Part shown: piece after piece, positions 10,092 to 63,807 of the stretch
Layout: the number at the start of each line of letters is the position of its first letter
Numbering within the stretch: the first letter of the stretch is position 1
NCBI GenBank assembly: GCA_012026655.1
Contig: JAAILG010000005.1
Span: forward strand, 124,001 to 188,000
Direction of reading: 5' to 3'
DNA from: Hydrolagus affinis
Taxonomy: Eukaryota
DNA length: 64,000 nucleotides
Position numbers and translations under genes: made by a program
The notes under the pieces: model-generated
What the model saw: the letters and a program-made list of their open reading frames with translations, nothing else
What the model was told of the DNA's origin: nothing
Databases searched by the model: none

Positions 10092-11965
10092 ACCATAAGA
10101 CCATAAGAATTAAGAGCAGGAGTAGGCTATTCAGCCCTTCGAGCCTGCCCCGCCATTCAATAAGATTATGGCTGATCTTCTGACCTAACTCTAATTACCC
10201 TGCCCCATCTCCATATCCCCTAATCCCTCTATTTTAAAAAAAAATCTATCAGTCTCAGCCTTGAAAATGTTCAGGGACTGAGCATCCATAGCCTTCTGGG
10301 GGTAGTGAATTCCATAAATTGTGAAGTGAAGAAATGTTTCCTCAACTCCGTTCTAAAAGGCTGACCCTTAATTTTAAGACTGTGACCCCTGATTATAGAT
10401 TCTCCTACCAGGGGAAACAGTCCCTCAGTGTCTACTTTATCCATCCCTTTAAGAATCTTATATGTTTCAATAAGATTCCCCCCTAATTCTTCTGTACTCT
10501 AGAGAATACAGCCCTAGTTTATTCAACCTATCTTCATAGGTCAGTCCCCTCTTCCCAGGAACTAACCTCGTGAATCTACGCCGCACCCCCTCTAAGGCAA
10601 GTATGTTCTTTTTTAAATAAGGAGACCAAAACTGCACAAAATACTCTAGGTGCGGTCTCACCAAAGCCCTATACAGTTGCAGCAAGACTTCCTTCCTCTT
10701 GTACTCTAAACCTTTTGAAATGAACGCTAGCATGTCGTTCGCCTTCTTAGTTGTTTGCTGCACCTGCAAACTAACTTTTTGAGACTGGTCACCCAAATCC
10801 CTTTGAATACTAACACTATCTCCCCCTCTAGAAAATAATAATTTTTTTTTATTTTTGTTACCTAGGTGAATAATTTCACACTTCCCCACATTAAATTCCA
10901 TCTGCCACCTACTTGCCTACTCCCCTAGCCTATCTATATCTTGTTGTAATCTTTTTGCATCATCCTCAGAGCTCACTCTCCTACCTAGTTTAGTGTCATC
11001 CACGAATTTAGACATGTTACATTCAATGTCCTCATCTAGAGCATTGATGTAAATTGTAAATAGCTGAGGCCTAAGCACTGATCCTTGTGGCACTCCACGA
11101 GTTACATCCTGGCAATTCAAGATTGACCCATTTATCCCTACTCTCTGTTTTCTACCAGTTAGCCACTCATCTATCCATGTTAATATGTTCCAATTAATCC
11201 CATGGGCCTTGATCTTGTGCAACAGCCTTTTTGTGTGGCACTTTATCAAATGCCCTCTTAAAATCTAAATATACCATATCTTCTGATTCCCCTCTATCCA
11301 AACTGCTGGATACATCTTCAAAAAACTCTAAAAGATTAGTCAAGCATGACTTCCCGTTTGTAAAGCCATGTTGGCTCTGCCTAATCTTTTTGTGGTTTTC
11401 CAGGTATCCCATAATGACGTCTTCAATTAAGGACTCAAGAATTTTCCCTACCACTGATGTCAGACTAACTGGTCTACAGTTCCCCATATTTTCTCTCCCA
11501 CCCTTCTTAAATAGTGGAATTACGTTCCAATCAATGGGGACTTTTCTAGTATCCAACAACAACAACAACAACAACAAATTACATTTATAGAGCGCCTTTC
11601 AAATGTGTGAAATTTGAAATTCTCTATCCAGAGAATTTTGGAAGATCATAGACAAGCCATCCACTATCTTGGTAGCCACCTCCTTTAAAACTCTAGGATG
11701 CAGGCCATCCGGTCCAGGGGATTTATTGGTTTTAAGATCTGCCAATTTATCTAAAACCATTTCTTTACTAATATTAATCTCCTTAAGTTGCTCGCTAACA
11801 TTGTCTTCTTGGTTCCCCTCTATTTTTGGTATGTTTCCAGTGTCTTCTACGGTGAAGACATTAGAAAAATACTTCTTTAATGACTCTGCCATGTCTTTGT
11901 CCCCTATTATAATTCCCCCTGTCTCTGCCTGTAATGGACACACATTCACCCTTGATAGCCTTAAG
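10092..11965 (-). mobile_element. 5'-truncated CR1-clade LINE (ORF2 reverse transcriptase, pseudogenised)
   Basis: ORFs 11599-12171, 11194-11577, 10917-11249 and 10467-10901 give consecutive CR1 ORF2 motifs: KSPGPDGLHPRVLKE, RPVSLTSVVGKILE, QHGFTNGKSCLTNL, YLDFKRAFDKVPH, GVPQGSVL, KFVDDTKL, LYRALVRPHLEY. Frameshifts, a stop and FADD->FVDD are present. The 3' end has an 8-bp tandem repeat (ACCATAAG x2, 10092-10107). Confidence 0.95.
11556..11624 (-). mobile_element. Tiny L2/SINE 3' tail inserted in the CR1, with 6-bp TSD (TATCCA)
   Basis: Minus strand reads GAAAGGCGCTCTATAAATGTAATT(TGT)n. TATCCA flanks it at 11550-11555 and 11625-11630. Removing the insert restores CR1 ..IFQNSLD|TRKVPIDW. Confidence 0.85.
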
Positions 11966-13250
11966 CCACACACGCACAATTCAGAAAGCCAACCAAACAA
12001 CAATCTAACTGGCCAAAAAAAAAGCAAAGCTTGTAATAAATAATTAAATATTAGGCTTAATTTAAGTTGAAGAGCCAACCTTGGTTTGCCACTAAAGTGT
12101 ATCCTGAACAACTCTAAGCAATTGCAACTATCAAATCCATTCCAATCCATTCTGCCAAAGCCGAGAGCCACAAACTATAATTGTGATTATTATATACACT
12201 ATGACTGTGAAGAGGATAAGGGTGGGGGCGGGATTAGAGACTTTTGTATCCTGTCACCAAATTCCTCCATTTATTCTGCAGAAAAGCTCATTCAGACACA
12301 CAATCTCTCCGACGGTAACAGGATGAAGCCATTGTCTGGTACCGCACACCACCCAAGAGACAGACCCATAAGATTTTGGTTCAATTCATGTTCCCATCAA
12401 CTTTTGATCTTAGCTAGAGCAATACCCGCAGATACTACAATTGCCCAAAGCACCCATGATCTCAGGATGGGAAAAATATATTCTACAAAGCCAGGAGAAG
12501 ATTATTTTCTCTACTGATTGTGTGGTCCATGCCAGAAGTTAGCAAGCAGGGTAATAAGCATGGAGGGTACTGTATTAAAAATGGAACTGACACTTCACAT
12601 TCATGTAGTGCTTTTCAGGGATTGGGAGTCGAGACATTCTTGCAACATGGCGTAGGAAGTATTGTGCCCAGAACAGGGAAAAGGGAGAGAGATCATATCA
12701 AAAGAAATGTCAAAATTACATTTTGTAGTTGGACAGTCTACTTAAACTGTGCAGTATATTGCATTTGTTTCTGACAAAGATATAATTAAGATAAGTGTAT
12801 ACAATTTCTAGAAACTCAACCCTCTCCTACAATATACCATTTGCGTGCAGTCCAGTTTGCCATGTGCTCAAAATCTCTCAAGTACATTTACTTTCCCAAG
12901 ATTTGATGAACAGTGGAATAGAAAATGCATACATGTGATAGTAATAATCATCCGTGCATTTTCTATACCGTCTGTAATGTTGAAATGTTCAAAAGAGCTT
13001 CACAGGGAATTGCTGTCAAGTGAGGGAACTATGAATTAGTCGGCAAATATGTGATATTCACACCTAAGTAGAAGAAAGGAGTCAAATGCCACATATGCTT
13101 TCAGGTGCTGCATGCAAGTTACAATCTTTTGAAATTTGTTTCCTGCATTCTACAAATGTAAAACATTGTTATGTACAGAGTAATAAGACCGTGAAACTTT
13201 AAAATGGATCAACCTTGAAACATGTCTTTTTATAAACCCTCAGAAGGATA

Positions 13251-13388
13251 ATGCACAATTGGCTGTCACGTTTCACCCACAAAACATACAGTCAATTCAC
13301 TTTACCGTATATTCTGTAAAGCACTTTGAAACGTCTTGAAGATGTGATAAGGCGAGATATCAAATGCAAGGACTATTATGTTATTATG
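13251..13388 (+). mobile_element. (ATT)n-tailed SINE 3' half
   Basis: CAATTGGCTG..CCCACAAAACATACAGTCAATTCACTTTAC..ATATCAAATGCAAGGACTATTAT. Confidence 0.85.
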
Positions 13389-13445
13389 TTTAGTGTAGAA
13401 TCCACATAAGCATAATATGACGCTACCCTACAGTATATGATATAT

Positions 13446-13497
13446 AATAATATTTGCATTTGATATCACAGCTCATCATGTCCTTGAGACATCTCAA
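13446..13497 (-). mobile_element. (ATT)n-tailed SINE tail fragment
   Basis: TTGCATTTGATATC..GAGACATCTCAAA. Confidence 0.7.
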
Positions 13498-13780
13498 ATT
13501 CAAGTTGTTGTAATGTCAAAATATTCTGAGAGTAAATTGACTCTTATTTGTCACCCCCCCACATCCAACCATATCTTTTTCCAGGGCACGTAGCTGTTTC
13601 AGCTAAGACTGACCATTCATCAACAGGAGGTGTAAGCGTGCAGCCAAAGACAACTTGGTGAGGAGGTTTTTGCCCTCAGCTATCACTCACAATGTAGCTG
13701 AGCTCAACAACCTGGCAAAAATGGAAACTTCATCCCACTTACTCCACTGCACCATGTTGCTGTTCCAATGGCCCATCCGT

Positions 13781-14093
13781 GTGGAGTCCTGCAGCTCAGT
13801 GGTTGGAGCACTCGCCTTACAAGCGTGAGACCTGTGCTCAAATCCAAGCAGGTCAGGGCGAAACCTTGGGCAAGTTTCCTTATTCCACATGCCTAATAAT
13901 AATCCCTCAAAAAACAATTGGTCATTTTCAATCCACGACTGTTTGTAGGACACTGCTGTGTGCAATTAGCTGCTGCCTTTCGCCCACAAATATACGGTCA
14001 ATTCACTTTATAGTATATTCTGTGAAGCGCTTTGAGATGTCTACAACAAGAAGACATGAAAAGCGCTATATCAAATGTAAAGATTATTATTAT
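13781..14093 (+). mobile_element. Full-length tRNA-derived SINE (resembles Callorhinchus SINE2-1_CM)
   Basis: tRNA-like head GGAGTCCTGCAGCTCAGTGGTTGGAGCACTCGCCTTACAAGCG with A box and degenerate B box. Body GGACACTGCTGTGTGCAATTAGCTGC. L2-type tail GAAAAGCGCTATATCAAATGTAAAG(ATT)n. Colinear with the copies at 19831 and 54562. Family name is from memory. Confidence 0.9.
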
Positions 14094-14559
14094 GACACAG
14101 GTCTGTAAATAAGTCAGTATTTTTAAGTTAAGAATTTGAGGGGTAAGGAATTGTTCTTTTACTTCAAACTCTAAAACAGTAGGTTCTATAAATGTAATTT
14201 TCTATAATTTGAAACTTCAAACTGCGTCATCCTAAGAAGATGGTTCTTAACTTGAAAGGATGTAACCACTGCCCATTTTACACCATCTGTAGCAAGGCTG
14301 TTCTGGGTGGGGCAGCCACTACTAACAGCTGTCGCAGTGCAGGAAGTCAGACATGAGCAAAATATATCACAACTTTGTTTCTGTAATACACTCCAGAAGC
14401 TGTATTCACTTTTATCTCTTAAATAATGTGCTCCGATGTTTCAACTATTCACATAATCTGTTAACCAATACATTTCTCATCGGCTTATCTGCACTGTTGC
14501 AATGTTTTGCACAATATCATGTAGAAGTCAATCTGCATTGACTGTGCCAAAGCATCCAA

Positions 14560-14900: not shown

Positions 14901-16155
14901 CAAGTTCAAATAGATTAAAGGCACTTTCTAAATTTCTCCTGTGATTTGTGAAGCACAACAGGATTAAAATGGAAGGTCAAATAATGAACCAACCCAATCA
15001 TCTATTATAAGCATGCAAACTGTATCAACTTTGCGCATTGGGAGTATAGTTTTGGCCCCTCGTAGTACCAAAGCATTGCACAACCAACAATTAATGGATG
15101 AGAAGTCCTGTGCTCAATGGGGCACAAAGCCAAACAAAAAAAAATCATATTATTTATAGAAAGAAAGTGGCAAACAAAGAAGAGAAATACAGTATTTGGC
15201 ATCAACTTATCATAGCACATAAATCTATTGATACCTATAGGGACCTAAACTGATGGACCTCAGACATGTGCCTCCAGGCTTTAGGCCAGCTTTCTCCGCA
15301 GAGAAAGCTGTTTTTACTAACTTCAACAACATAAAGTGAATGTTTTTTTTAGCTGGTTTGCACGCTTGCAGTTGAAGGCATGGTTCAACAAATATTCCAG
15401 CCCAAACTGCGTTATTTAATACTGCATTTCTTAAAACTAAAAGAAAGCATTTAATTTTCCGTTTGATTTAAATTCTACAAGCAGCTATTGCTGTGATATA
15501 TAAAACTGATCATGCTGCATTCAAAGAGGTACATCATAACTATTTACCACTATAATTATTGATCAAGTCCTTTATTTTGAAGGCACACCAATCTGCTCCC
15601 TTTATGCAACGTGACTTGATTTCAAACAAGGTAACTTACATTGTCCTTATTGCTTCTTGCCTTCTTAGATTTAACTAAATGCAGATTACCACACACACAT
15701 CTCTTCTCCCAAGACACGTGACTGACACTCCTCTGCAATGCTGTTAACCAACTCAAGCTTCCTGCAACTCTTCGCTCTGCTGTGACCCATTAAACATAAA
15801 AAGTTTTACTTTACACTAAATGCAATGGCTCCAAATAATGCTAATCTTACATATGGGAGTTATTAAACACATTCAACAAGTTTATTCAAATTCCCTACTT
15901 CTAAGCAACACCACAATGAAACTCTTGACCTCTCATCTATTAGAACATAAAATGGGATAAAATTATGCAGAAGTAGAGAATGAGTTTGTTCTTTAGAAAT
16001 GCTATGATAATAAACAGATAATAGATTGTAAGTAATTACTCTGCAATTCTGACTTTCATTGCTGTGAATCATCATTTAAGCAGAGGAGTAGTCAGACAGC
16101 TGGGTGACCGTTACAGACAATATCATTCAGAGTTCATCTTAGTAGGTGGTACACT

Positions 16156-16285
16156 TAATAATAATAATCCTTGCATTTGGTATTTGATGCCTTATTGCAG
16201 CTTCGAGACATCTCAAAGCCCTTCACGGAATATACCATAAAATGAATTGACTGTATATTTTGTGGGCGAAACTCGGCAACCAATT
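16156..16285 (-). mobile_element. (ATT)n-tailed SINE 3' half
   Basis: TAATAATCCTTGCATTTG..GAATTGACTGTATATTTTGTGGGCGAAA. Confidence 0.85.
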
Positions 16286-17505
16286 TGGCAACACTTGACA
16301 CAAAGAGAGGCCGGTTCAATGTTTCCTCTCCTCTCTCAACCAAACTATGCAAAATGGCAAGACCATTTATGAAACCAATCTGTTGTGGTCAGATTTTAAT
16401 TTTAGCCAATATAGGGTACATGGCTCAAACTATGAACTGCGGTGGGAGTCACTTAGCTCCTCAACCTTTGCGTTACTGGATTTTAATGATCTTTGCTAAA
16501 ACTAAAAAGTGTACTAGCAATTGAAAGGAGAAATTACAGCCACAAGGCAGCCCATTGAAGCTATGCTGGCCATAAGAGCTATCCCTCTCTATTCACAATT
16601 CAATGCTCTATGCTGGAACCTTATTTTTTAATATTGCGCTCTTAATATACAGTTAACCAATTCCCTGTTAAACAATGTTACGGTCTTAGTTTCAATTGTC
16701 ATGTATGGCAAAGTAATTTGTGGAGAATGGGGAGGGGGAATACAATTTAATTTACAGCTCAGAAGTTGATCAATTATAAGTACGAGTCCTAACATCCCAC
16801 AAGAGGATGTCCATAACCCAATCATCCAACCACCCAACAGGTTGAACTTTTATTAGGAAAAATTAAGCTGCTTTGTTGCGGTGGTGATGGTTGTTGTGGA
16901 GGGGTGGGGGGTGGGAGAAAGGGAAAGATAAACACATATAAATAATAGAAAAAGGAAACTTAACATGTCCAAAGTGACTTTGTGTAATTAATCAAAGATG
17001 ACTTGGCAAGGAAATTATTCAGTCCTGATTTTTGACTGGAATCACTCTATTACTCTACTGTTAACTGTCCCTTTAACAGGTACTTTGAACCTTAAGGAAC
17101 AAGCACTCACAAACTCCTCAGTTGGATCCCAGCACTCATCGGTCTTATTTACAAATTGTGATCTGTGTAAAAAATCTGAAAAGTCTATACTGAGGTCAAA
17201 AATGAACAGATGTTAATGCGGGAAATAAAAAAAAGTATTGCTGTATTTCACCATAATAGAAAGTAAAAACAGATATATTTCTGAGCAAGGAATCCAGCAA
17301 TGAACTGAAAGTTATTTATACTCCGAAATGGCTTTACAAACCCAATTCTGTAATAACTGTGGTTCTGCAATGGAGCTTTATGACAGACCTTCAATACACT
17401 GAAACTGTATTTAGAAAAAAAGGAGCTTATAATTGGAACACATATTTGCAGGGTTCCAGATGACTGCCACATTTTATTTTTAATATGTCCAACCAAACGT
17501 TTGGA

Positions 17506-17720
17506 GCAAAAACAGAAATCGCTGGGAACACTCAGAAGGTCAGGCAGCATCTATGGAGGAAGGAAAGTGAGTCAACGTTTCAGGTCCATGACCCTATTTC
17601 AGTACTTTGTCAGTTCTGATGAAAGGTTGTGGACCTGAAAGGTTGTGGACCTGTGAGTGCTTGTTCTCAGCAATTTCAGTTTTTTGTTTCAGACTTCCAG
17701 CATCTGCAGTATTTTGCGCA
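17506..17720. mobile_element. Inverted pair of Penelope-like terminal-repeat relics carrying hammerhead-like motifs
   Basis: Left arm (AAACAGAAATCGCTGGGAACACTCAGAAGGTCAGGCAGCATC..AACGTTTCAGGTC) is the reverse complement of the family seen at 35341-35443 and, partly, of the right arm. CTGATGA..GAAA core at 17616-17640. The PLE assignment is inference. Confidence 0.7.
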
Positions 17721-19319
17721 AAAGATTGGAATTTTGGGGGGAGAATGTTTTTCAATGTGGAAGTTCACTGCAGAATATTTTCTACAAATTACTCCATCCA
17801 GACTCTTGTAACTTATTCGTATAGCTATGACACAACGTAGTAGATAAGAGGATGAGGATGTGAAAATGGTCAGTCGTGAAAATAAAGCAATGAACTGTGC
17901 ATTCAGCAAATGACTGAGACAGTCCTTCAATGTGTTGCTGCTCAGAGGTTGGCAGATTCTGCTGGGATGAGGAGAGGGAAGGGAAAGTGATATAGATTGA
18001 TGCTACTGTGGTGATTATTTCAGGAAACGGACTGCAAACCAATCATAATTCCTCATTTCTTTTCTGGAAGGCAGGAAAAATATTGAAACACTTGTTGGCA
18101 TTCGTGTTTAATTGGAGCCAAACACGGAATGCAATCACTCTTTTATAACCGAAGCTAGTAGCTTTGGACCTTGGCAAGAACGTCTGTTGTTGCTAATGTG
18201 TTGACAGGTACAGAGCTGAAATAGCGTAACCAAGGATCCCAAGGGATTCTGTTAAACCTATTATGTCTGTAAAAATATTGGATGATTTGCAGCAATTCTT
18301 TTTCTTTTGTTGCTCTCTGCTAATTAATATTAAGGATGTTAACCTGCCAGCAAGCTGTCTACCTTGTAGCTTTTGGCTCTGGGCGCTGGATGGGATTCAA
18401 CTATGATTAAACCTGTTTCCTTGCCTACTCCTTTCAGCTAATACAGTCCATTCCACTAAAGTGAACGGATGATAAGTGATTACATCCGTTAACAAAAAAG
18501 AATTTATGAAATACTTTATAAATCATTACATTGCTCTCAACTACTCTAGAGCAACAATTAAGAACAGACGTTACTAAGCACAGTACAGTATAAGGAACTG
18601 GCAGATTTTTAGTAGAAAGTCAGCTCACACATGAGGAAGCCAGCAATGCAATGTAGAGAGTAATGGGGAGAAAAGGGGAACATTACACAAGAAATTCTCT
18701 TTTTCGTTTTAAAATGAAAGATGAATTTGTTTAATGAAAACTGGTCTTCACTGATCATCTTGTGGCTCAATGGTCCACAATGCAGCTCTCCATTGAACTA
18801 ACACAAGAATCCTTTTAGTAAAATATATTCTGAATGATTTTTCCTCATTGGCCCTGGTTGAGAGAGGTGACGGGTTACCAACTCAGTACCGGAGGGTGGT
18901 GGGGGCGGAGGGGAGAGAGATAATCATACGTATAAGTGACCACCCCATCAGCAGTAAACAGAGCAAATACTAATAGTTATACTGTATTAAGAAACAATTA
19001 AGAGCACAAGCAGTACAATAGAAGATGTTGGTTGATTTCAACTTGAACACATTCAGAAAGTTATGCAGAAATGAGACAGTATTGAATGACAAAGAGTAGT
19101 GAAGATGAGGGGCGAGGGGGAATGAGGTTCTTGTTTAAAAATATTACACCTGCAAAATAAAAACAGATTAGGAAATATTGAAGGAACATTGAATTGAATG
19201 CTACTTTAAAAAAGCCTGAACAGAAATAGAGAATTAGGAAAAGTTTCTAAATCAGCGTATAACTTTAAGGATTATTACTACATTTTGGGAGGACAAGTTT
19301 CCCCACTACATTTGGGGTG

Positions 19320-19449
19320 GACAAGTTTGCAGGGTTATACGGAGAGAGTCAGAGAATTGGATTGACTTTGAATCTCTTTTCAAAGAGCTGGCACAGACAC
19401 GTTGGGCCGAATGGCCTCCTTTTGTGCTGTAAAATTCTATGATTCTATA
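19320..19449 (+). mobile_element. CR1 3' end
   Basis: AAAGAGCTGGCACAGACACGTTGGGCCGAATGGCCTCCTTTTGTGCTGTAAAATTCTATGATTCTAT terminal motif with an ATTCTATG repeat. Confidence 0.8.
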
Positions 19450-19499
19450 AATGACAGCTTTGTGATGCACTGCTCCAAACAAAAACCTCAAATGCTGAA

Positions 19500-19665
19500 A
19501 CAATTCAAGTGTTTAAAAGGGATACACATAGACACTTTGGGGGAAGTAAAGGTATTAAGAGATATGGAGCAAACACAGAGAAATGAGATTGGAAAGATAA
19601 AGAGCTGCCATAAACTAATAAAACGGTGGAACAGGCCTGATGGCCTCTTCCTGTTCCTAACTGTG
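19500..19665 (+). mobile_element. CR1 3' end fragment (second subfamily)
   Basis: AAAGGTATTAAGAGATATGGAG..GGTGGAACAGGC..ATGGCCTCTTCCTGTTCCT. Confidence 0.65.
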
Positions 19666-19830
19666 TTTTTGGAAATTGAAGCAGGTTGATAAATATCAGC
19701 TCTGTGTCTAAACTTATTGTTGGGTTTTTGGGAGGGGGAGAAAGGTAAATTGGGTCTCCTTTGGTGCGGAACTGGCTCTGAGGAGATATGCCTGCCAAAT
19801 CTAGATATGACCATAAAAATCCAAGGCAAA

Positions 19831-20137
19831 TAATAATAATAATCCTTGCATTTGATTGTAGTGCTTTTCATGTCTTCTAAACGTCTCGAAATGCTTCACA
19901 TGATATACTGTAAAGTAACTGTATTATGTGTGGGCGAACAATGGTAGTCAATTGCGCATAGCAGTGTCCCACAAACTAATAGATTGAAATGACCAATTGA
20001 TTCTTGTTTTTTTTAAAAGGGATTATTATTAGGCGTGTGGAGTAAGGAAATTTGCCCAAAGTTTCACCCTAGCTGGAATTGAACCCAGGTCTCTCAATTG
20101 TAAGGCGAGTGCTCTAAGAGCTGAGCTACAGGACTCC
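19831..20137 (-). mobile_element. Full-length tRNA-derived (ATT)n-tailed SINE
   Basis: Reverse complement begins GGAGTCCTGTAGCTCAG..AGAGCACTCGCCTTACAA..GACCTGGGTTCAATTCC (B box) and ends CAAATGCAAGG(ATT)n. Confidence 0.9.
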
Positions 20138-23116
20138 AAATGTGGAGATATCTGACATGTTCTCAATCCTGTAAACCAAAAGCCCCCCAAAATTGGATAT
20201 TCCTAGCTGGGCAAGGATGATTGTTAATGGTTCCCTGTTTTGTTTGATGCAGAAAAGCAGCTCCGATCCTCAACGGGTTAATGAAAACCCCCTCATTGCG
20301 TGCCATAATAAAAACAGTTCTTTCACAGAAAGTTAGAAAAATAAAGACAAAGTACTGTCTGTACTTTTGCATTTTATTATTCTTGCCATGAGTATGGGAA
20401 CACAGATTTTTACAGATGGTAAAATGACAGCTCCAATCACTGTGCAAAATGTTCACATTACCGATGAAATCAAGAATCATGCTTCTAACAGGAGTGTAAA
20501 TTACTCTTCTATTGGGATTGACGTCAATGCTTGTGACAATGAGAAACAGAATGCGTACACACAGATAATCATTTGGAAATGTTTGTGGCTTGGGAAACCG
20601 GGAGAGAAATTGTTAGTGGAACTGACCTCAGCTGAAAGCAAAATCGTTTCTTCCTATATTTCCCAGAAAAAAGATAAGTGATATCTCATTAAATAACAGT
20701 CTTTAGCAAGATGTATGCAATGGATACATTCAAAGAACCCAGTGTTGTATTGTCCTAAAATCTTTGTTTGTAACCCGCTTTAATAGCCTGAAATGTGCAC
20801 AGCGTACAACAAATACACTTTGCTCAGAGGACAACCTCGCAGTAAACATGAAAGTCAAAACGTTAAATTTTCAGCCAGACCAATGTTCACTTTACAAAGC
20901 GAGCACGTTTCAGAGTTGAATTTAAAAAAAAACATTTTCGCTAATTTGCTTGATAGTTTAAGAATTATCCACCAGCAGCCCAGCTACTGTCTGGCAAAGA
21001 ACTAGTTTTATAAAGTTGGCTAACTTACAATGCATGATCTTAATAAAATGCAGCATACTCCTTCTGTTAACGTTTAACACAGTACAGTATATAGCTGTAA
21101 CTACTGTACAATGCCACATATAATTTTGGCAGAATATTTAGCTAAATTGTAGCAACCAACTGTACATTTTGAGTCAAGTGGACTTTTCGTTTAAAAAAGA
21201 TAAACATTAGCTTTATCTTGTTTACAGCTGTACACTTTGGGTAAGGTACATTTTAGCAAAACTACATATACAACTACAAATAACAAATCTGTTATAAAAA
21301 ATCTCCAGGATAAGTTGTTTGAAGTATCTAGCCTGATTATGATACCAAAGAGTATGAGGTTTCAAAAACATTTTTTTTAAAAAAACATAACTCACAACAC
21401 AGGTTCAAAACACTTTTCCCTACGTTTCTCACCTAATGTTTCCTGCAACAATAGGTTGGGAATATTGTAACTTAATCATTAAATTGGTCTCTGACTAACA
21501 TGCTTTGAAGAGCCAAAGCACGCAATTGATCTGGTGAAGTAAGAGAAGATTGACTACGTGAAAGCCATCAATAGGGTGGACAAAGGTTTGATAACCACAA
21601 CTGCTCTTTGCCATTGCTGGAGTTGTTATTCTGGGAGGGTCGTTGAGCCACATTGAATCAACCATTCACTTAAAAAAAGGCAATTGTCTATCACCTTGAG
21701 AACTGATGCAATTAAATTACTGTAAGTTATCAGGATGACCCAAATGGAGACAGTTGGGCACGTCTGACCCTTTACATCTGTTAATGTTTCTTTCTTGTAA
21801 CTAACAAATTGATCAAACAAGCCCTGGTGTCAAATTCATGGGAGGATTTCAATTTACGAGTAGCTGATGTGCAGAGTTCATATGTTCGGCAATTCACGAC
21901 AGACACTGGCAAAGGAAACGGGAAATAAATGTTTACTTGCTCTTTCCAAACAGGGAAGAAGGAAAACTCCCAACGCCGACTAATTTCCATGAAGAACAGA
22001 CGATTTTACAAATGGTTATGAAGCAGCATTAATCACACGTACTGTTCACAGGCCATTGAGTCAGAAACTTCCTCTCGGTGTAGATCTCAATCAGAAAGGT
22101 ACTTCAAAGCTATAATAATTAAGATTCACTGCAGCTGGCCTTTAAAAAGAAAAAAATAAGAGAGGAGTAAAGTATTATCTTGATCAAGTCCATTAAACAG
22201 TTTATCTTCACTTTGGTAGGACAGTTCCTGAGGAACGTTGCAGATAAAAAGTTTTATCTTTTGTAGATCATTTTCTTGCAGCCCACACAGAATAACCTTA
22301 TGGATAAAAAGGTTAATAGCTTTTTATGGATGGCGAATATTAAATCTTAAAATGCAGAGCTTTGCTGTGTAGTTAAAATATTTGTACTTGCATGGGTTGA
22401 GTCACCCTCAGCCTCTTTGTAATTATTTTCACATGTTCGCAGGATATTTTATGGGTGGGGAAGTGTTCAGTTAGTTTCAAAAGTTTCTGAACACGGCAAA
22501 AAAGGTAAAGCAATTCACATGCATTTCTCATAACTAATATCAGCATTAAGATTAGGATAGTTCGAAGTCACTGGAAACATTAAAATGCATCCCAATGAAA
22601 CTAAAGCCAAAGCTAATACCATTTGTTTCTTCCTGACTTCAGTGACAAAATCTAATCATTAATCTAATGATTTAGAAAATCTAATTGTTAAGAACAACAT
22701 GCAAGGCTTCTTGAAGAAACTACGATTTGCAAACTGGGATTATGGTGTTAGACACTTTTGGTAAAAGAGTCAGAAATCATGACTATGGCATTCATCACAC
22801 ACCGATGAATTTTAAGCTAGTTTCTATAACTGGAGCCACAAAAATTCAATGAGGCAAAAAATATTGATACTCCAAGAGATAGGAGCTGTGCATTTCAAGC
22901 AATAACTGGTTAATTTGTTGGTCATTTGCCTTATTGTCTCACGCATCTTGATTACAATTAGAGTTAGAGTAATGGTTAGAATGTGTTTCTCAATACTATG
23001 TTAAGGTCGTTGGACAATCTTTTTTTTGAAAAGGAGCATCATGAATAATTTGGAAATGTTATTTCGGGTCATATTATTTTATAACCAAGTTCAGGCAATC
23101 TGGCTAAATCTGAAGC

Positions 23117-23509: not shown

Positions 23510-23721
23510 CTTAGGATGACCTCCCGATGTGAAAGGTGATATATAAATATAATTTTATATTGTGAAAAGGCACTATCTATATAAAAAAATTTAAAAGGGT
23601 CATTTCAATCCATGACTCTTTGTGGGACACTGCTGTGCGCAATTGGCTGCCACTTTTTGCCCAGAAAATATAGTCAAGTCCAAGGATTATTATTTATTAT
23701 TATATCACATGCAAGGAATTA
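23510..23721 (+). mobile_element. Stacked L2 tail (23510-23550) and internally deleted (ATT)n SINE pieces (23596-23721)
   Basis: CCTCCCGATGTGAAAGGTGATATATAAAT; GGTCATTTCAATCCATGACT..GGGACACTGCTGTGCGCAATTGGCTGCC..CAAGGATTATTAT. Confidence 0.75.
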
Positions 23722-24049
23722 TCTGAAATAGTTTTTTGGTAACGGATATGGGATATACTGACTAAGCATTGTTGGTCAGCAACTTACTTGCATAAAAGAT
23801 TATAGATAACGCAAATACCAGTCAAGTCTTCCCAGTCACATTTCACCATAACTAGACTGGACAAAATGTTGCGATTCGTGTCAATTCATTCCTAAAATGG
23901 TACATGTTCCAGTAGGGATTCCCCAGCAATGCATCGGTGGATCGTATGATAAAACTAATGTTCAAAGATTTAACCTACATTATCTCTGAACCTTCTTCAG
24001 CGGTGGAAAATGAGATGGTTCCATTAAAGAAATTACCTTGAAATAAGTA

Positions 24050-32580: not shown

Positions 32581-35319
32581 ACATCTGATGGAAGTCCCAT
32601 GCCAGTAATGGGACAACTAATTCTGTGGCAATGCATTAGAGTTCTACATCTTGAAGCATCATTGGTGGTTCTCAACTCAAGGCAACATAGTGATTTGAGA
32701 TGTACCTATGCATCCGATATCATGGAAGTATCATGGAAATTATTTCCCTGTGGAGGCGAGTTAAGAGTTGTCTCTCACCCGCTGAGGAGAATCCATTGTT
32801 ATATTCTTTATGATTTCCAGATAATCAACAACATTGTGTGTTCTTATCACTGTCCTATCCCTGTGCTGTCCAAGCATATAATCCCAAAACACATACCTCT
32901 GTATGTATTCTTGTAATAGGCTACCATTGTGTTGCACATCCATTAAAGCATTCAAACCTTGATTAGCTTTTTGTGAAACTTCCAATGTACCTCTACTTAC
33001 TGGGTATATTTTAATTTATCCTGATAGATTCAAGATTCAATTTGAGATTCAATTGGTTGCATTCATTGTTTCCTAACCTTCTCCGTGGGACACATATGTG
33101 ATAGTCACTCAAACTAAAAGCAGATGATAGTAGAAATCTGCATTGGTTGAATCCTGCCTAGGAAATGCTGAACACCCCCATTTCATGTTTCTGTAACTTT
33201 GCCCGGACTGACCTTAGCTGCTCACCTCACTTATATGACCTCCCAAATTAACTTATTATCACAAGAAGATATTAAATTTTGAAAATAAGCATTTTTAATT
33301 GTGTCTAAGTACTTCCTTAAGAAACTGAATTAAACCAAATCTCACAGCATTGTAATTAAATAGGCAAAGCCTCTTAGCTATCCAGTTCATGATTAAAAAA
33401 AATTCTGTCCAACATGATCACCTAACCCCATCATTCACTGGGGGAAGTTTTCCCACCCAACTTAACCAGTGAAGAGTAAAGTGTATGCAAAAATAGGTTT
33501 AAAAAAATTAATGGTGGGGGAGGGGAGACATCAATGATGGAGGAGTATCAAAAGATAGAGGAAAAGTATCTGCAGTTTATCATGTATCCTGCACTGGTCC
33601 ACAAACCTGACAGCCTACACAACTGGTAATGACTAACACCCTCTAGGGCATGTCTATGCTCAACTGTAAATTAATCAAAATCAGCGCATCTTCCTCACAG
33701 AAATACAGCTCATTATTCCATAATCAGTGATTGGTCCCTAGTTTGTAGAATGCCAGAGCGAATATCACCCTTTCAGTTTCATTCGTTCCTTTGTTTGCGA
33801 TTTAAGTACCAAGAGGTTCTTGATCAGTTACCAGGTGGCAATTATAGGGACCATATGCCATAGAAAGATAAAGGGGACAGACACCTTCAGGAGTGGAATA
33901 TCGGAATAATAACCATTGCATCACTCTTGTCCCAAGATTGATGTCGGAAACAACAACATCAACAACAACAACAACAAAAAAAATGACATTCCATGAATAC
34001 TGTCATCTTCCATTCTACATTGAGAAATTAAATTACATTCTTCTCCATGTTTACTGTGTAAATTCCTGCAGAAAGACACAGCTCTCTGTTATTCTTATTA
34101 ACCTAACCTTTAATTTGTCTCCCACATGTCTTGTAAATGCTATTATGTATTTAACATTGGTCAAGTAAATTTTAACAACCATATTTATAGAGTGAATACT
34201 AGAAAGCATAATAAATACTAAAGCACGTAAAGAATACTAGCACACATAAATTGGGTAATGTTATCGATCTGATTCCTAAAACCTAAATATCTTAAGAAAA
34301 TGTTGATTGGAATTATAATCCCACTCCTGGAAGAGGAACCATTGTTTGCAGTGGGTACATTCAGTCTTATTAAGATATAGTAAAGACCTTTCTCTCATCA
34401 TCCATATTTGTATCCTGGTTTGCATGTTGGACAGCAGTGCTGGTTGTTTCTGTTCTCTTGGCCTGATCCCAACCAATTTTCCCGCTTGAGTAAATTTTTT
34501 GTATCTGCCATATCTATTCCTTTATCCATGTTAAATTGTGAAGGCTTAACAAAACCCTTCAGGCAAAACAGTTTTCACCTGCTGCAATCTTTTGAAATGT
34601 TTTTTACATTATGGATGAAATATGTATATATTTAACATTGCTTTTGCTTTCAGCAACCAGCAGTTGTTTTTAATGTAATATTCATCCAAATTCTTTGAGT
34701 GGTAAGTTGGGATAACTTTTTACAGTGCTAGACTTTTTCATATTCACAAGAACTTTATAGAATATGTTACTTTGATTCAAAATTAAGTATAAAGGTTCTG
34801 GGATTAAGTATAAAGGTCCTGAAAGTTTAGATGATAGGTAATGGTACGCACTTTCTCCAGTCCTTCTGGATGCAAGATGTTGGCAATTAAGTTTTTTTTC
34901 CATAAAAGGAACATTCACTAACCTCTACTTCCACACAGGCGCAAAAAGCCTTCAAATTGTTTATGGATGCTGCCTGACAATTCACATACATTTTTTTCAG
35001 TGCTGTAGCTGGTTTCTAAATCAGACATAATTTTGGCAGCATTAATAATGGCTTACATTAGATTAAAAGTTCACATTCTCACTATATAATCTCCCCCAAA
35101 TCATACTCTGTTTATGAATTTTACCATCAAAACACAAAAAACCTGATTTGAAATTAAAGCCTTGGCAGAGATGTGGTTTAAAAAATTCAGCCTCTGCCAA
35201 CGTCTCTGCAGTAGGTGGTAATGAGCAAGAGATTCCAGATTCTGACAGTGTTGTTTTTTGTTTAAGTTGCACATATAGTTCCTGCACATTACAAAAGTGT
35301 AATTTAGCCAATGTGACAT

Positions 35320-35443
35320 GTTCTGATGAAAGGTTGTCCATTCTGTCGAAGGGTTGTGGACCCGAAATGTTGACTCATGTTCCTTTCTCCATTGATGCTG
35401 CCTGGGCTGCTAAGTGTTCCCAACGACTTCTGTTTTTGTTTCA
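35320..35443 (+). mobile_element. Penelope-like terminal-repeat relic with tandem hammerhead-like motifs
   Basis: GTTCTGATGAAAGGTTGT then TTCTGTCGAAGGGTTGTGGACCCGAAATGTTGACTC..GATGCTGCCTG..TTCTGTTTTTGTTTCA; same family as 17506-17720. Confidence 0.7.
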
Positions 35444-35459
35444 CCTCTGCAGGGATTTG

Positions 35460-61370: not shown

Positions 61371-62248
61371 TCAGTGGCATCCGCATCCCTCTACCACCAT
61401 CTCCTGATAGTTTTTCAACACAACTTTGTCGTATTCGTCCAAGTAGAGCATTGAGATAGGGCTGAGTTCTGTGGGGACGCAGCAAGCCTTGGGGATGTTG
61501 GAGTTTACAGAGTTTACAAGAGTCTGCACGATGGCGTGGTTGGTTGAATTCAGGTGATCTGCCAGTGGGAATGGGCAGTCGCCGTGACAGTAAAAGGCTT
61601 GGTAGCCAGGCGGTGCCACTATCCAGTCGTTCCAGCCCACATCGCTGAAATCCACATAGAGCGAGTGCCTCCTGCAGTGCGACTTGTTCTTCTTGCGTCT
61701 CAGGCCTTTGCCGCTACGTTTCACCCTCCGGGTGAGAGCGTGTCCCTTGCCATCGTGGCTGAAAGTTACAAGCAAAGGCCTGAGCTGCGACCAATCGCCT
61801 CCAACGCCTCCTCCACCTCCCTCACCCCTCCTCCCTCCAGCTCTCTGGTGCAGCGATCTGCTAATCCTAACGTGCGAGCCTTGCTGGCTTCTCGTCTCGT
61901 TCAGGTGAATCACTTCGACCGCCAGCCCGTGGTTAGGCTGTTTGTGCACCGTCCATCTCAACACGGCCGGGCTCACGTCAAAGCTCTCCCACTGTGTCCT
62001 GTTCTGATGGACCAACCTGGTATCCAACAGCCTGGTGATGAGGTCGCCCTGTTTGCTGGGGGCCCTCATGATCTCATAGACGTTGATGCGGTGGAAACCT
62101 TCATCCCAGTTCAACAGGCTGTCGATCCGCTCCCGGTAAACTCTCAGCTCGGCAGAAGAAAGCACTTCGTTCTCGGGAACCGCGCTGATATTAAACACAA
62201 AACGAAACGTGAAGTCTTGCCTCCAGCCCGGCACCAACTCCAAGTGGT
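61371..62248 (-). CDS. bmp4: Bone morphogenetic protein 4, last coding exon (prodomain C-half and mature TGF-beta domain)
   Basis: Acceptor TTTCTGTTGCGAAACAG|AC at 62250-62249, phase 1. Contains the RISR (S2, 61857-61868) and RVKR (S1, 61716-61727) cleavage motifs and a 7-Cys mature domain [90 protein letters not shown] and YQEM favour BMP4 over BMP2. TGA at 61373-61371. Confidence 0.97.
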
Positions 62249-63355
62249 CTGTTTCGCAACAGAAATGAGAGACAACCCTTAAAACAACTGATTCATCAAG
62301 TGTATGTGAGGTGGAGAGGGGTGGGGGGGGGAGAGGCAAACACACACACACACACACAAACATGTACTGTATACCCATTCATACACACACACAGGACCCG
62401 AGTAAATACCCTTTAATTAAAAGATATGATACAACTAGACTAAACCGAGGCCAAACAAAAGGTGACGCCCGCCTCTAAAGTTATTACACCAAAAAACTAG
62501 TGTTTTTGACTCAAAAATGTCGAATCGACCACTTAATAACGCAAAACCAGTTTCACACAAGAGCTAAACACACAGCAGCAGGGAAAAAAAACCTTGGCTC
62601 GTTTCTTAGAAGTACTTTTGTCACCTGCCACAACTGCTCCCCCCCCCACCCCCCCCACCCCCTCACCCACAACCCCAACTCAGACTCGACTATTAATTGA
62701 AATCTGCAATCCTCTCCAGCTTGTGTGAAAGTCTAAATGCGCCAGCCACTCGAATACATTGCACTCACCCAACAATACTCGACTATAATATATATATATT
62801 TTTTAAAAACACGTCTGTCTCCCAATACGTGTGCCTGGATTCCTGAACATTCAACATTCAAATGACCTGTTCTGTCTGGGACTGTAAATACACAACTGTA
62901 AATACCCATTTCCCCCCCTTCTAAAAACAAAACATTCAGAAAGTCCCTTCTGTATACAGTGTACTCCATTCTTTGTACCCCCCTCCCCCCCCCCAACTTA
63001 GCCCAGTAACCCACTATTGGGGAGAGTATCATTATCATCATCAACAACAACAACAACAAGATTGGTAAGTGAATGGCTCGAAAAAGACAACACAAACGAG
63101 TCATCAAAGTGAGAATCTCAACACTCACTGCTATATATACATTATATACACACACATACATAATATACACACACATATACATAATACACACATATTATAT
63201 ATATATATAAATATATACACACACATAATATAAAAATACACACACACACATCGCCAAGGCAAAAGAAGAAAGAGAAGCCCCCGCCCACACACACCCCCCC
63301 CCCCCACACACACACACACCCCCACCTCCCAAGTGAAGTGAAGTGTGTTTAGTAC
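62249..63355 (-). other. BMP4 phase-1 intron (1107 nt), GT-AG
   Basis: Donor GAAG|GTACT at 63355; acceptor ACAG| at 62249. Joining gives FHHE-D-HLE in frame: 352+878=1230 nt = 409 aa + stop. Confidence 0.93.
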
Positions 63356-63707
63356 CTTCGTGATGGAAACCCCTCACGGTGTTGGCCCGACTCGCCGATA
63401 TCTCGGGATAATCGAAGTTGATGTCGTGGGTGATCTCGTCCCCAGACTGAAGCCTGTACAGATCCAGCATATACTGGGGAATGACGGCAGATTTGCTGGG
63501 CTGTGGGCGTCGTTGCAATCCGAACATGTTAAGTAAAGTGGCCTCGAATTCCCGTAGCAGTTCATGGTTTTGCGGAGAGCGACGTCCACCCGCCTGGTTT
63601 TGCTCAGCGAACTTCTTCCTTCCTTCCTCGGGTATTAGACTAGCATTACCTCCCAGTAAGACTTGGCATAATAAAATTACCATCAGCATTCGGTTACCAG
63701 GAATCAT
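63356..63707 (-). CDS. bmp4: Bone morphogenetic protein 4, first coding exon (signal peptide and prodomain N-half)
   Basis: [20 protein letters not shown] is the diagnostic BMP4 N-terminus; ends ..[12 protein letters not shown]. The exon begins at 63714 (CCGTAG|AGACACCATG), giving 7 nt of 5' UTR and a Kozak-like ACCATG. Confidence 0.97.
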
Positions 63708-63724
63708 GGTGTCTCTACGGAGCG

Positions 63725-63770
63725 CAAAAAACACACATACACACACACACAACACACACACACACACAAA
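63725..63770 (-). repeat. (TG)n tract abutting the 3' splice site of the ATG exon
   Basis: Minus strand (TG)n..TGTGTTTTTTGCGCTCCGTAG|. Confidence 0.9.
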
Positions 63771-63807
63771 AGGAGCGAGAATTAGAGTAATCTTCAATCA
63801 ACGCCCC

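Follow-up and report, generated by a model that had tools for sequence, protein, structure and literature searches.

Minimal type I hammerhead ribozymes are known from the pseudo-LTRs of metazoan Penelope-like retrotransposons (PLEs), including the Neptune elements of fish (Cervera and de la Pena 2014; PMC4209133), where they are described mostly from single truncated copies, with opposite-strand pairs 100-700 bp apart in Schistosoma (PMC4209133). Insertions with inverted pLTRs, a one-sided tail of 30-40 bp and a target-site duplication (TSD) have been described for endonuclease-bearing PLEs (PMC3846280, PMC8557442), and non-LTR retrozymes have been reported in the one cartilaginous fish sampled (bioRxiv 10.64898/2026.07.22.740005). 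Minimal pseudo-LTR hammerheads, inverted truncated copies and the one-sided tail are all already published; the origin of the inverted repeats of PLEs and of the one-sided tail, and the role of the hammerhead, are stated as open questions in PMC8557442 and PMC11167929. A search of published papers found no description of the family studied here in cartilaginous fish, and the family may already be catalogued in repeat libraries such as Repbase or Dfam.

As a case study, we considered a 213-bp element at positions 17506-17718 of the window (the whole 64,000-nt stretch of Hydrolagus affinis DNA that was analysed). We conclude with good confidence that it consists of two 5'-truncated, hammerhead-bearing PLE end repeats placed head to head, likely of Neptune type and likely brought in by one insertion; both ribozymes carry mutations and are predicted to be inactive. 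Both arms correspond to the 3' end of a PLE pseudo-LTR. The inverted arm (17506..17606, minus strand; profile match E 1e-30) ends at a short, tail-less terminus; it was aligned with 29 other copies and differs from the family majority at 16 of 110 aligned columns, a few of which lie in the flank. The direct arm (17612..17718, plus strand; profile match E 6.5e-10) includes a tail of ~30-37 nt (~17690-17718) that is absent from its partner, two alternative 3' ends being found across copies of the arm. Both arms begin, at their 5' ends, a few bases at most from the first stem of the ribozyme, and between these ends stands a centre filler (17607..17611) that resembles, and probably derives from, a short inverted piece of the ribozyme start, similar short pieces being found at many centres.

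A mechanical repeat search of the window returned an inverted repeat at 17573-17606 and 17612-17645, 76% complementary, and the palindrome exceeds the two ribozyme motifs, as the whole of 17506-17718 folds as one hairpin. The element is flanked by a likely 12-bp TSD, 17494..17505 on the left and 17719..17730 on the right, which match at 10 of 12 bases; a match of at least 10 of 12 within +-4 nt is expected by chance in 0.5% of cases. With one mismatch allowed, our TSD script missed this pair, which has two, and it was read from the sequence. The insert, including the region 17620..17651, is also present in a contig of a second genome (run X1), with flanks ~1% different from those of the window and no empty allele there.

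According to the first-pass annotation, two back-to-back hammerheads lie at the centre of the element, and the sequence bears this out: on the plus strand AGTT (17612-17615), CTGATGA (17616-17622), an extra A (17623), the stem-loop AGGTT/GTG/GACCT (17624-17636) and GAAA (17637-17640), on the minus strand the motif of 17606-17570 as it had been written, and across 17620-17651 the 16-nt tandem. The layout is, as proposed, that of the minimal type I hammerheads of PLEs, including the extra base after CUGANGA. Both copies had been called damaged, and they are. The minus copy (17570..17606) has G8 and A9 changed and keeps stem II, GAAAC, GUU and the 3' strand of stem I. The plus copy (17612..17644) keeps CUGAUGA, stem II, GAAA and also GUU, still found at 17642-17644, which it had been said to have lost; what it lacks are C15.2 (17641 is a G) and the 3' strand of stem I, losses that a duplication and a deletion brought about. 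The duplication is the plus-arm tandem of 17620..17651, recognised by a gap against the other aligned family copies, from which it is absent, and it adjoins the deletion.

From sequence, column comparison and alignment with intact copies, both ribozymes are predicted to be dead. In predicted folding, stem II has a probability of at most 0.011 in the window copies alone and of about 0 in the whole element. A scan of 15000-20000 against Rfam at E<=10 gave eight weak unrelated matches, none of them a hammerhead, and a strict CUGANGA..GAAAC pattern had no match in the window, both of which are in keeping with damaged copies. The idea of a dimer does not hold for this pair, because its motifs are on opposite strands and read-through would yield an RNA that is predicted to form one long hairpin with stem II near zero.

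The window locus is an ordinary, decayed insertion stub, an old and broken repeat that shows no sign of function. It lies ~44 kb beyond the stop codon of a vertebrate BMP-type gene of the TGF-beta family (61371-63797, minus strand), which has two coding exons, the 3' exon matching Pfam TGF_beta and its propeptide, and whose N-terminus we take to be that of BMP4. Broken LINE-type reverse transcriptase frames, presumably CR1/L2-like, lie at 10467-12174 on the minus strand, and an abundant short repeat with a TAA-repeat end, which we assume to resemble shark SINEs, occurs in both orientations (13252-14113, 16156-16290, 19831-20138 and 23583-23736); many PLE stubs sit in the AT-rich end of this repeat. 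The window also holds a second copy of the same arm (35319-35445, plus strand), single and with the ribozyme start duplicated and damaged, and near it a 16-bp fragment (34963-34978). Three poly(A) single-cell runs of another organism, of which 27-30% of each was read, cover the repeat and not its flanks, and are uninformative on this locus.

Using a 33-nt family core pattern, we obtained 660 exact matches in the genome against none for the reversed control, and a looser hammerhead pattern gave 4131 against 5; the motif pair of the window is therefore not a chance occurrence. The first 100 of the 4131 loose-pattern matches listed all resemble the PLE family of the window. A DNA search of the same genome returned 2263 first-look candidates, 40 of which were scored, and 80 stretches of 10 kb from large contigs contained 14 arm matches at ~11 loci, with none in reversed sequence. 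This corresponds to roughly 15,000 inserts in 1.11 Gb, by a rough scaling that is biased to large contigs.

Counted by column over 84-113 arms, the majority sequence of the family shows the complete minimal type I hammerhead, with CUGANGA, GAAA, a U16.1-H17 site and the extra base after A9. For two intact copies, folded from -4 to +40, stem II is predicted with a probability of 0.77-0.97 and stem I with 0.42-0.73, the latter dropping to about 0.04 when the tail is included. At least three subfamilies can be distinguished (for example L292-L308 against L201-L230), and among the first 100 of the 4131 loose-pattern matches listed their stems differ by a one-sided change from C-G to U-G and a loop change, with no two-sided change seen. 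The longest open frames belong to the subfamily in which the stem II closing pair and the loop are changed, possibly the youngest of them. Selection on the dispersed copies was rejected, non-CpG divergence being 3.9% in the core and 4.8% downstream, and the catalytic CpG bases decay like other CpG sites, with G8 changed in 26% and G12 in 23% of arms; decay across the family looks neutral.

The search for linked GIY-YIG and reverse transcriptase (RT) sequences proposed in the first-pass annotation gave a positive answer. Some copies of the arm extend upstream, and one led into an endonuclease-like frame. The arm lies downstream, on the same strand, of GIY-YIG-type coding DNA at 28 of 30 loci (one of them the query's own locus) and downstream of RT at 15 of 20, four of which also have an inverted copy upstream. 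At one locus, 487 amino acids without a stop reach from the RT through a C-X4-C-X2-C linker to a GIY-YIG-type motif that contains an internal CxxC. The RT piece matches Pfam RVT_1 at E 1.5e-6, just below the curated cut-off, and had no match among PDB sequences at E<=1. The endonuclease piece matched no Pfam family, and its identification therefore rests on the motifs given in PMC8557442. In five independent insertions (four single loci and one flank-sharing group counted once) the arm joins the N-terminus of the ORF directly. Since it is found both downstream of the ORF and running into its N-terminus, the arm is the leader as well as the terminal repeat of the element. The element accordingly has the make-up of an endonuclease-bearing PLE, a single ORF with an RT followed by a GIY-YIG domain with an internal CxxC, the latter recognised by motif only, linked to the arm. 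The proposal of a separate, non-autonomous, retrozyme-like family with inverted architecture is not supported, since the arm belongs, as terminal repeat, to an ORF-bearing PLE of the same genome.

A zinc finger of the CX2-5CxxC pattern is found in the RT-EN linker at 36 of 45 ORF loci. According to PMC8557442, such a linker finger is present in Neptune, reduced in Nematis and absent from Penelope and Poseidon; judged by this motif, the element is likely of Neptune type, with Nematis as the less likely assignment. Six loci with shared flanks (L321, L323, L325, L328, L329 and L340) hold a single PLE insertion, composed of an arm, ~1 kb of ORF start, a second arm and a 14-bp duplication, and the shared flanks show that this insertion was re-amplified as the passenger of another repeat. 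A template jump at the RNA start was considered for the second arm inside the ORF of this group and set aside, as a short similarity at the joint accounts for it just as well. The likely ORF start lies ~30 nt past the tail, right behind a pyrimidine tract ending in AG (L321, oriented 1030-1080; L320), which hints at a 5' UTR intron such as other PLEs have.

To study the anatomy of the stubs, arms were picked by a pattern ~60 nt downstream of the ribozyme, so as to avoid selecting for the ribozyme itself; 90 loci were used from the first 100 of 1394 pattern matches listed, and one (L196) was dropped as misaligned, which left 89. Family copies occur as single arms, as head-to-head pairs and as longer truncated copies, and 40 of the 89 sampled arms have a head-to-head inverted partner. 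Head-to-tail arrays of the arm were not seen in the loci examined, where the sampled arms are single, inverted or ORF-linked. The 3' ends of the arms fall into two groups, at ~+100 and ~+135 from the first core base, and exactly one tail per pair was found in 29 of 32 classifiable pairs (16 expected, p 1e-6), as in the window copy. Once four arms that extend far upstream had been left out, flanking duplications with 9 or more matches were present at 45 of 85 inserts; among palindromes they were present at 27 of 41, and in a null of mismatched flanks at 2%. Their frequency among the palindromes suggests that the palindrome was inserted in one event. Family TSDs have 9-16 matches.

The centre junctions differ in all 36 cases of 36, many centres have a short inverted filler, and a tiny inverted repeat stands at the ribozyme start. 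The two arms of a pair share subfamily marks at 127 of 147 sites (86%; shuffled pairs have a mean of 63% and a maximum of 76%) and share only 3 of 189 private non-CpG changes. Shared marks, few shared private changes and differing centres together point to arms of one source lineage that were joined anew each time and decayed separately thereafter.

The 5' ends are sharply placed. The core is reached by 58 arms, and 37 of these end within -8..0, where 3.2 are expected from the downstream rate, with a mode at -3; loose ends pile up at the same two bases in 168 and 177 contigs of the public run that also carries the window insert. Both 5' ends lie in -8..0 in only 8 of the 40 pairs, and at least one does in 27. 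At the cleavage site the stop rate is 0.5% per nt against a background of 0.6%, and on this lack of excess we rejected ribozyme cleavage as the source of the 5' ends. We infer from these figures that the RNA of the element starts at the ribozyme and had not been cut before it was copied. Of 30 extended copies, 16 have a TATA-like box 29 nt upstream of the first stem; the box is non-canonical and does not stand at -29 in the other 14. An internal promoter has been described in the Penelope element of the fly (PMC2377424), and TATA and Inr-like motifs have been noted in a rotifer pLTR (PMC3846280). Family sequence is present on both strands in poly(A) reads of another organism, with no pile-up of starts or ends in these 101-nt paired reads, which were not designed for 5'-end mapping. 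No mapped RNA start at the hammerhead was found described in the literature searched.

The sharp 5' stop and the single tail per pair hint that uncut RNA is copied from both target strands until run-off. In such a route the element RNA would begin at the ribozyme, and the endonuclease of the element would nick both target strands ~12 bp apart. From each nick, reverse transcription would start inside the uncut RNA, at one of two fixed positions (~+100 and ~+135); each cDNA would run off the RNA 5' end and the two would then be joined, the stub being a dead-end product. The ribozyme of the parent element would cut only as a dimer or with the help of protein, as reported for other PLEs. We give two-strand priming with run-off a slightly better than even chance of being the way in which the stubs arose; it follows the behaviour in vitro of an element of the anole (PMC11167929).

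A wider proposal can be advanced only tentatively, at somewhat less than even confidence, namely that the stubs are an in vivo record of PLE integration. A capped RNA would have the first hammerhead base as its start, each target strand would prime at its own fixed site, one of two, on uncut RNA, and the two run-off cDNAs, akin to retroviral strong-stop DNA, would be joined head to head. Cutting would then remove a capped leader of ~33 nt, and the ribozyme would be an off-switch or a timer, not the maker of unit-length RNA.

The pairs might instead arise by fold-back: close to the ribozyme start, the first cDNA (or an antisense template) would serve as its own primer and be copied back, and the one-sided tail would result from trimming of one end by the endonuclease. 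Self-priming has been proposed for the head-to-head palindromes of rotifer PLEs (PMC3846280) and the tail has been viewed as a resolution product (PMC8557442); the subfamily marks common to both arms, the tiny inverted repeat at the ribozyme start and the short inverted filler of many centres agree with it. In its simplest form, starting from a tailed first strand, the tailed arm should always reach further 5', whereas this was observed for the tailed arm in 9 pairs and for the short arm in 13, with 7 ties. Moreover, unpaired arms have their stop in the same position (19 solo and 18 inverted arms end in -8..0), and nicking and extension of both strands have been observed in vitro with the anole protein (PMC11167929). 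We therefore consider fold-back conceivable but rather improbable as the source of the pairs.

The pile-up of 5' ends, for its part, could mark a stall of the RT or a splice acceptor at the first stem of the ribozyme and not an RNA start. The upstream sequence is pyrimidine-rich and ends in CAG, an intron of the D. virilis Penelope has its end at helix I (PMC4209133), and stems I and II are predicted to form in intact copies. However, by eye, no first-exon sequence is shared before the modal end at -3 in 13 copies, and an RT that stalls should do so where it enters the fold, on the 3' side, and no excess is seen there. A stall or splice acceptor is in our view a doubtful explanation of the sharp ends, and an RNA start remains the reading we prefer.

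Far less probable, and already largely refuted, is a self-propagating non-autonomous palindrome, retrozyme-like or MITE-like, whose paired hammerheads would give a mobile or circular RNA: high copy number, TSDs, a near-constant size among palindrome-selected matches and the both-strand poly(A) reads of another organism speak for it, but the size constancy stems from the palindromic query, the centres differ in every case, the 5' ends vary among loci, about half of the arms stand alone, G8 and G12 decay like other CpG sites, and motifs on opposite strands cannot dimerise in one RNA, in which stem II is sequestered. A MITE in the sense of a DNA transposon was rejected, the TSDs being long and variable and the arm being tied to RT.

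The regularities of this family offer a modest, testable lead on PLE integration, since the sharp 5' stop, the lack of a stop at the cleavage site and the rule of one tail per pair provide numbers with which an in vitro system could be tested. Such stubs are also a recurrent source of false leads to new retrozymes. The non-LTR retrozymes (bioRxiv 10.64898/2026.07.22.740005; PMC7229834) do resemble them in having a type I hammerhead derived from PLE pseudo-LTRs; they are, however, described as head-to-tail tandem units with a ribozyme in each, whereas the window locus is an inverted pair in which neither ribozyme is intact.

The closest match for the ribozymes themselves is found in the minimal type I hammerheads of PLE pseudo-LTRs described in PMC4209133, with which they share the core boxes, the extra base between 9 and 10.1, the G10.1-C11.1 pair, the palindromic 15.2-16.2 and a short helix I. 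Stem II has 5 bp here and 7-8 in the Schistosoma hammerheads of the same account, and, compared with the motifs reported there, those of the window pair lie only ~5 nt apart and both are mutated. For the architecture, the nearest counterparts are the insertions of Adineta Pen2a (PMC3846280) and those of the Fig. 2 legend of PMC8557442, which have the same head-to-head inverted 5'-truncated copy, one-sided tail and TSD. The TSD measures 9-10 bp in the Adineta Pen2a system (PMC3846280) and 9-16 here, and, unlike inserts of the Pen2a type, the present ones consist of two arms only, without an ORF, number in the thousands and have a sharp 5' stop.

For the mechanism, the best comparison is the Poseidon element PAc of the anole (Frangieh et al. 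2024, PMC11167929), in which two internal RT start sites define the tail, both strands are nicked and extended, uncut RNA is the main template and the ribozyme is assisted by protein. By contrast with the present family, PAc belongs to the Poseidon clade, its ORF starts in stem II and its start sites are AC-rich and inside the ORF, whereas here the linker zinc finger is present and both ends are U-rich and precede the likely ORF start, which itself stands past the tail.
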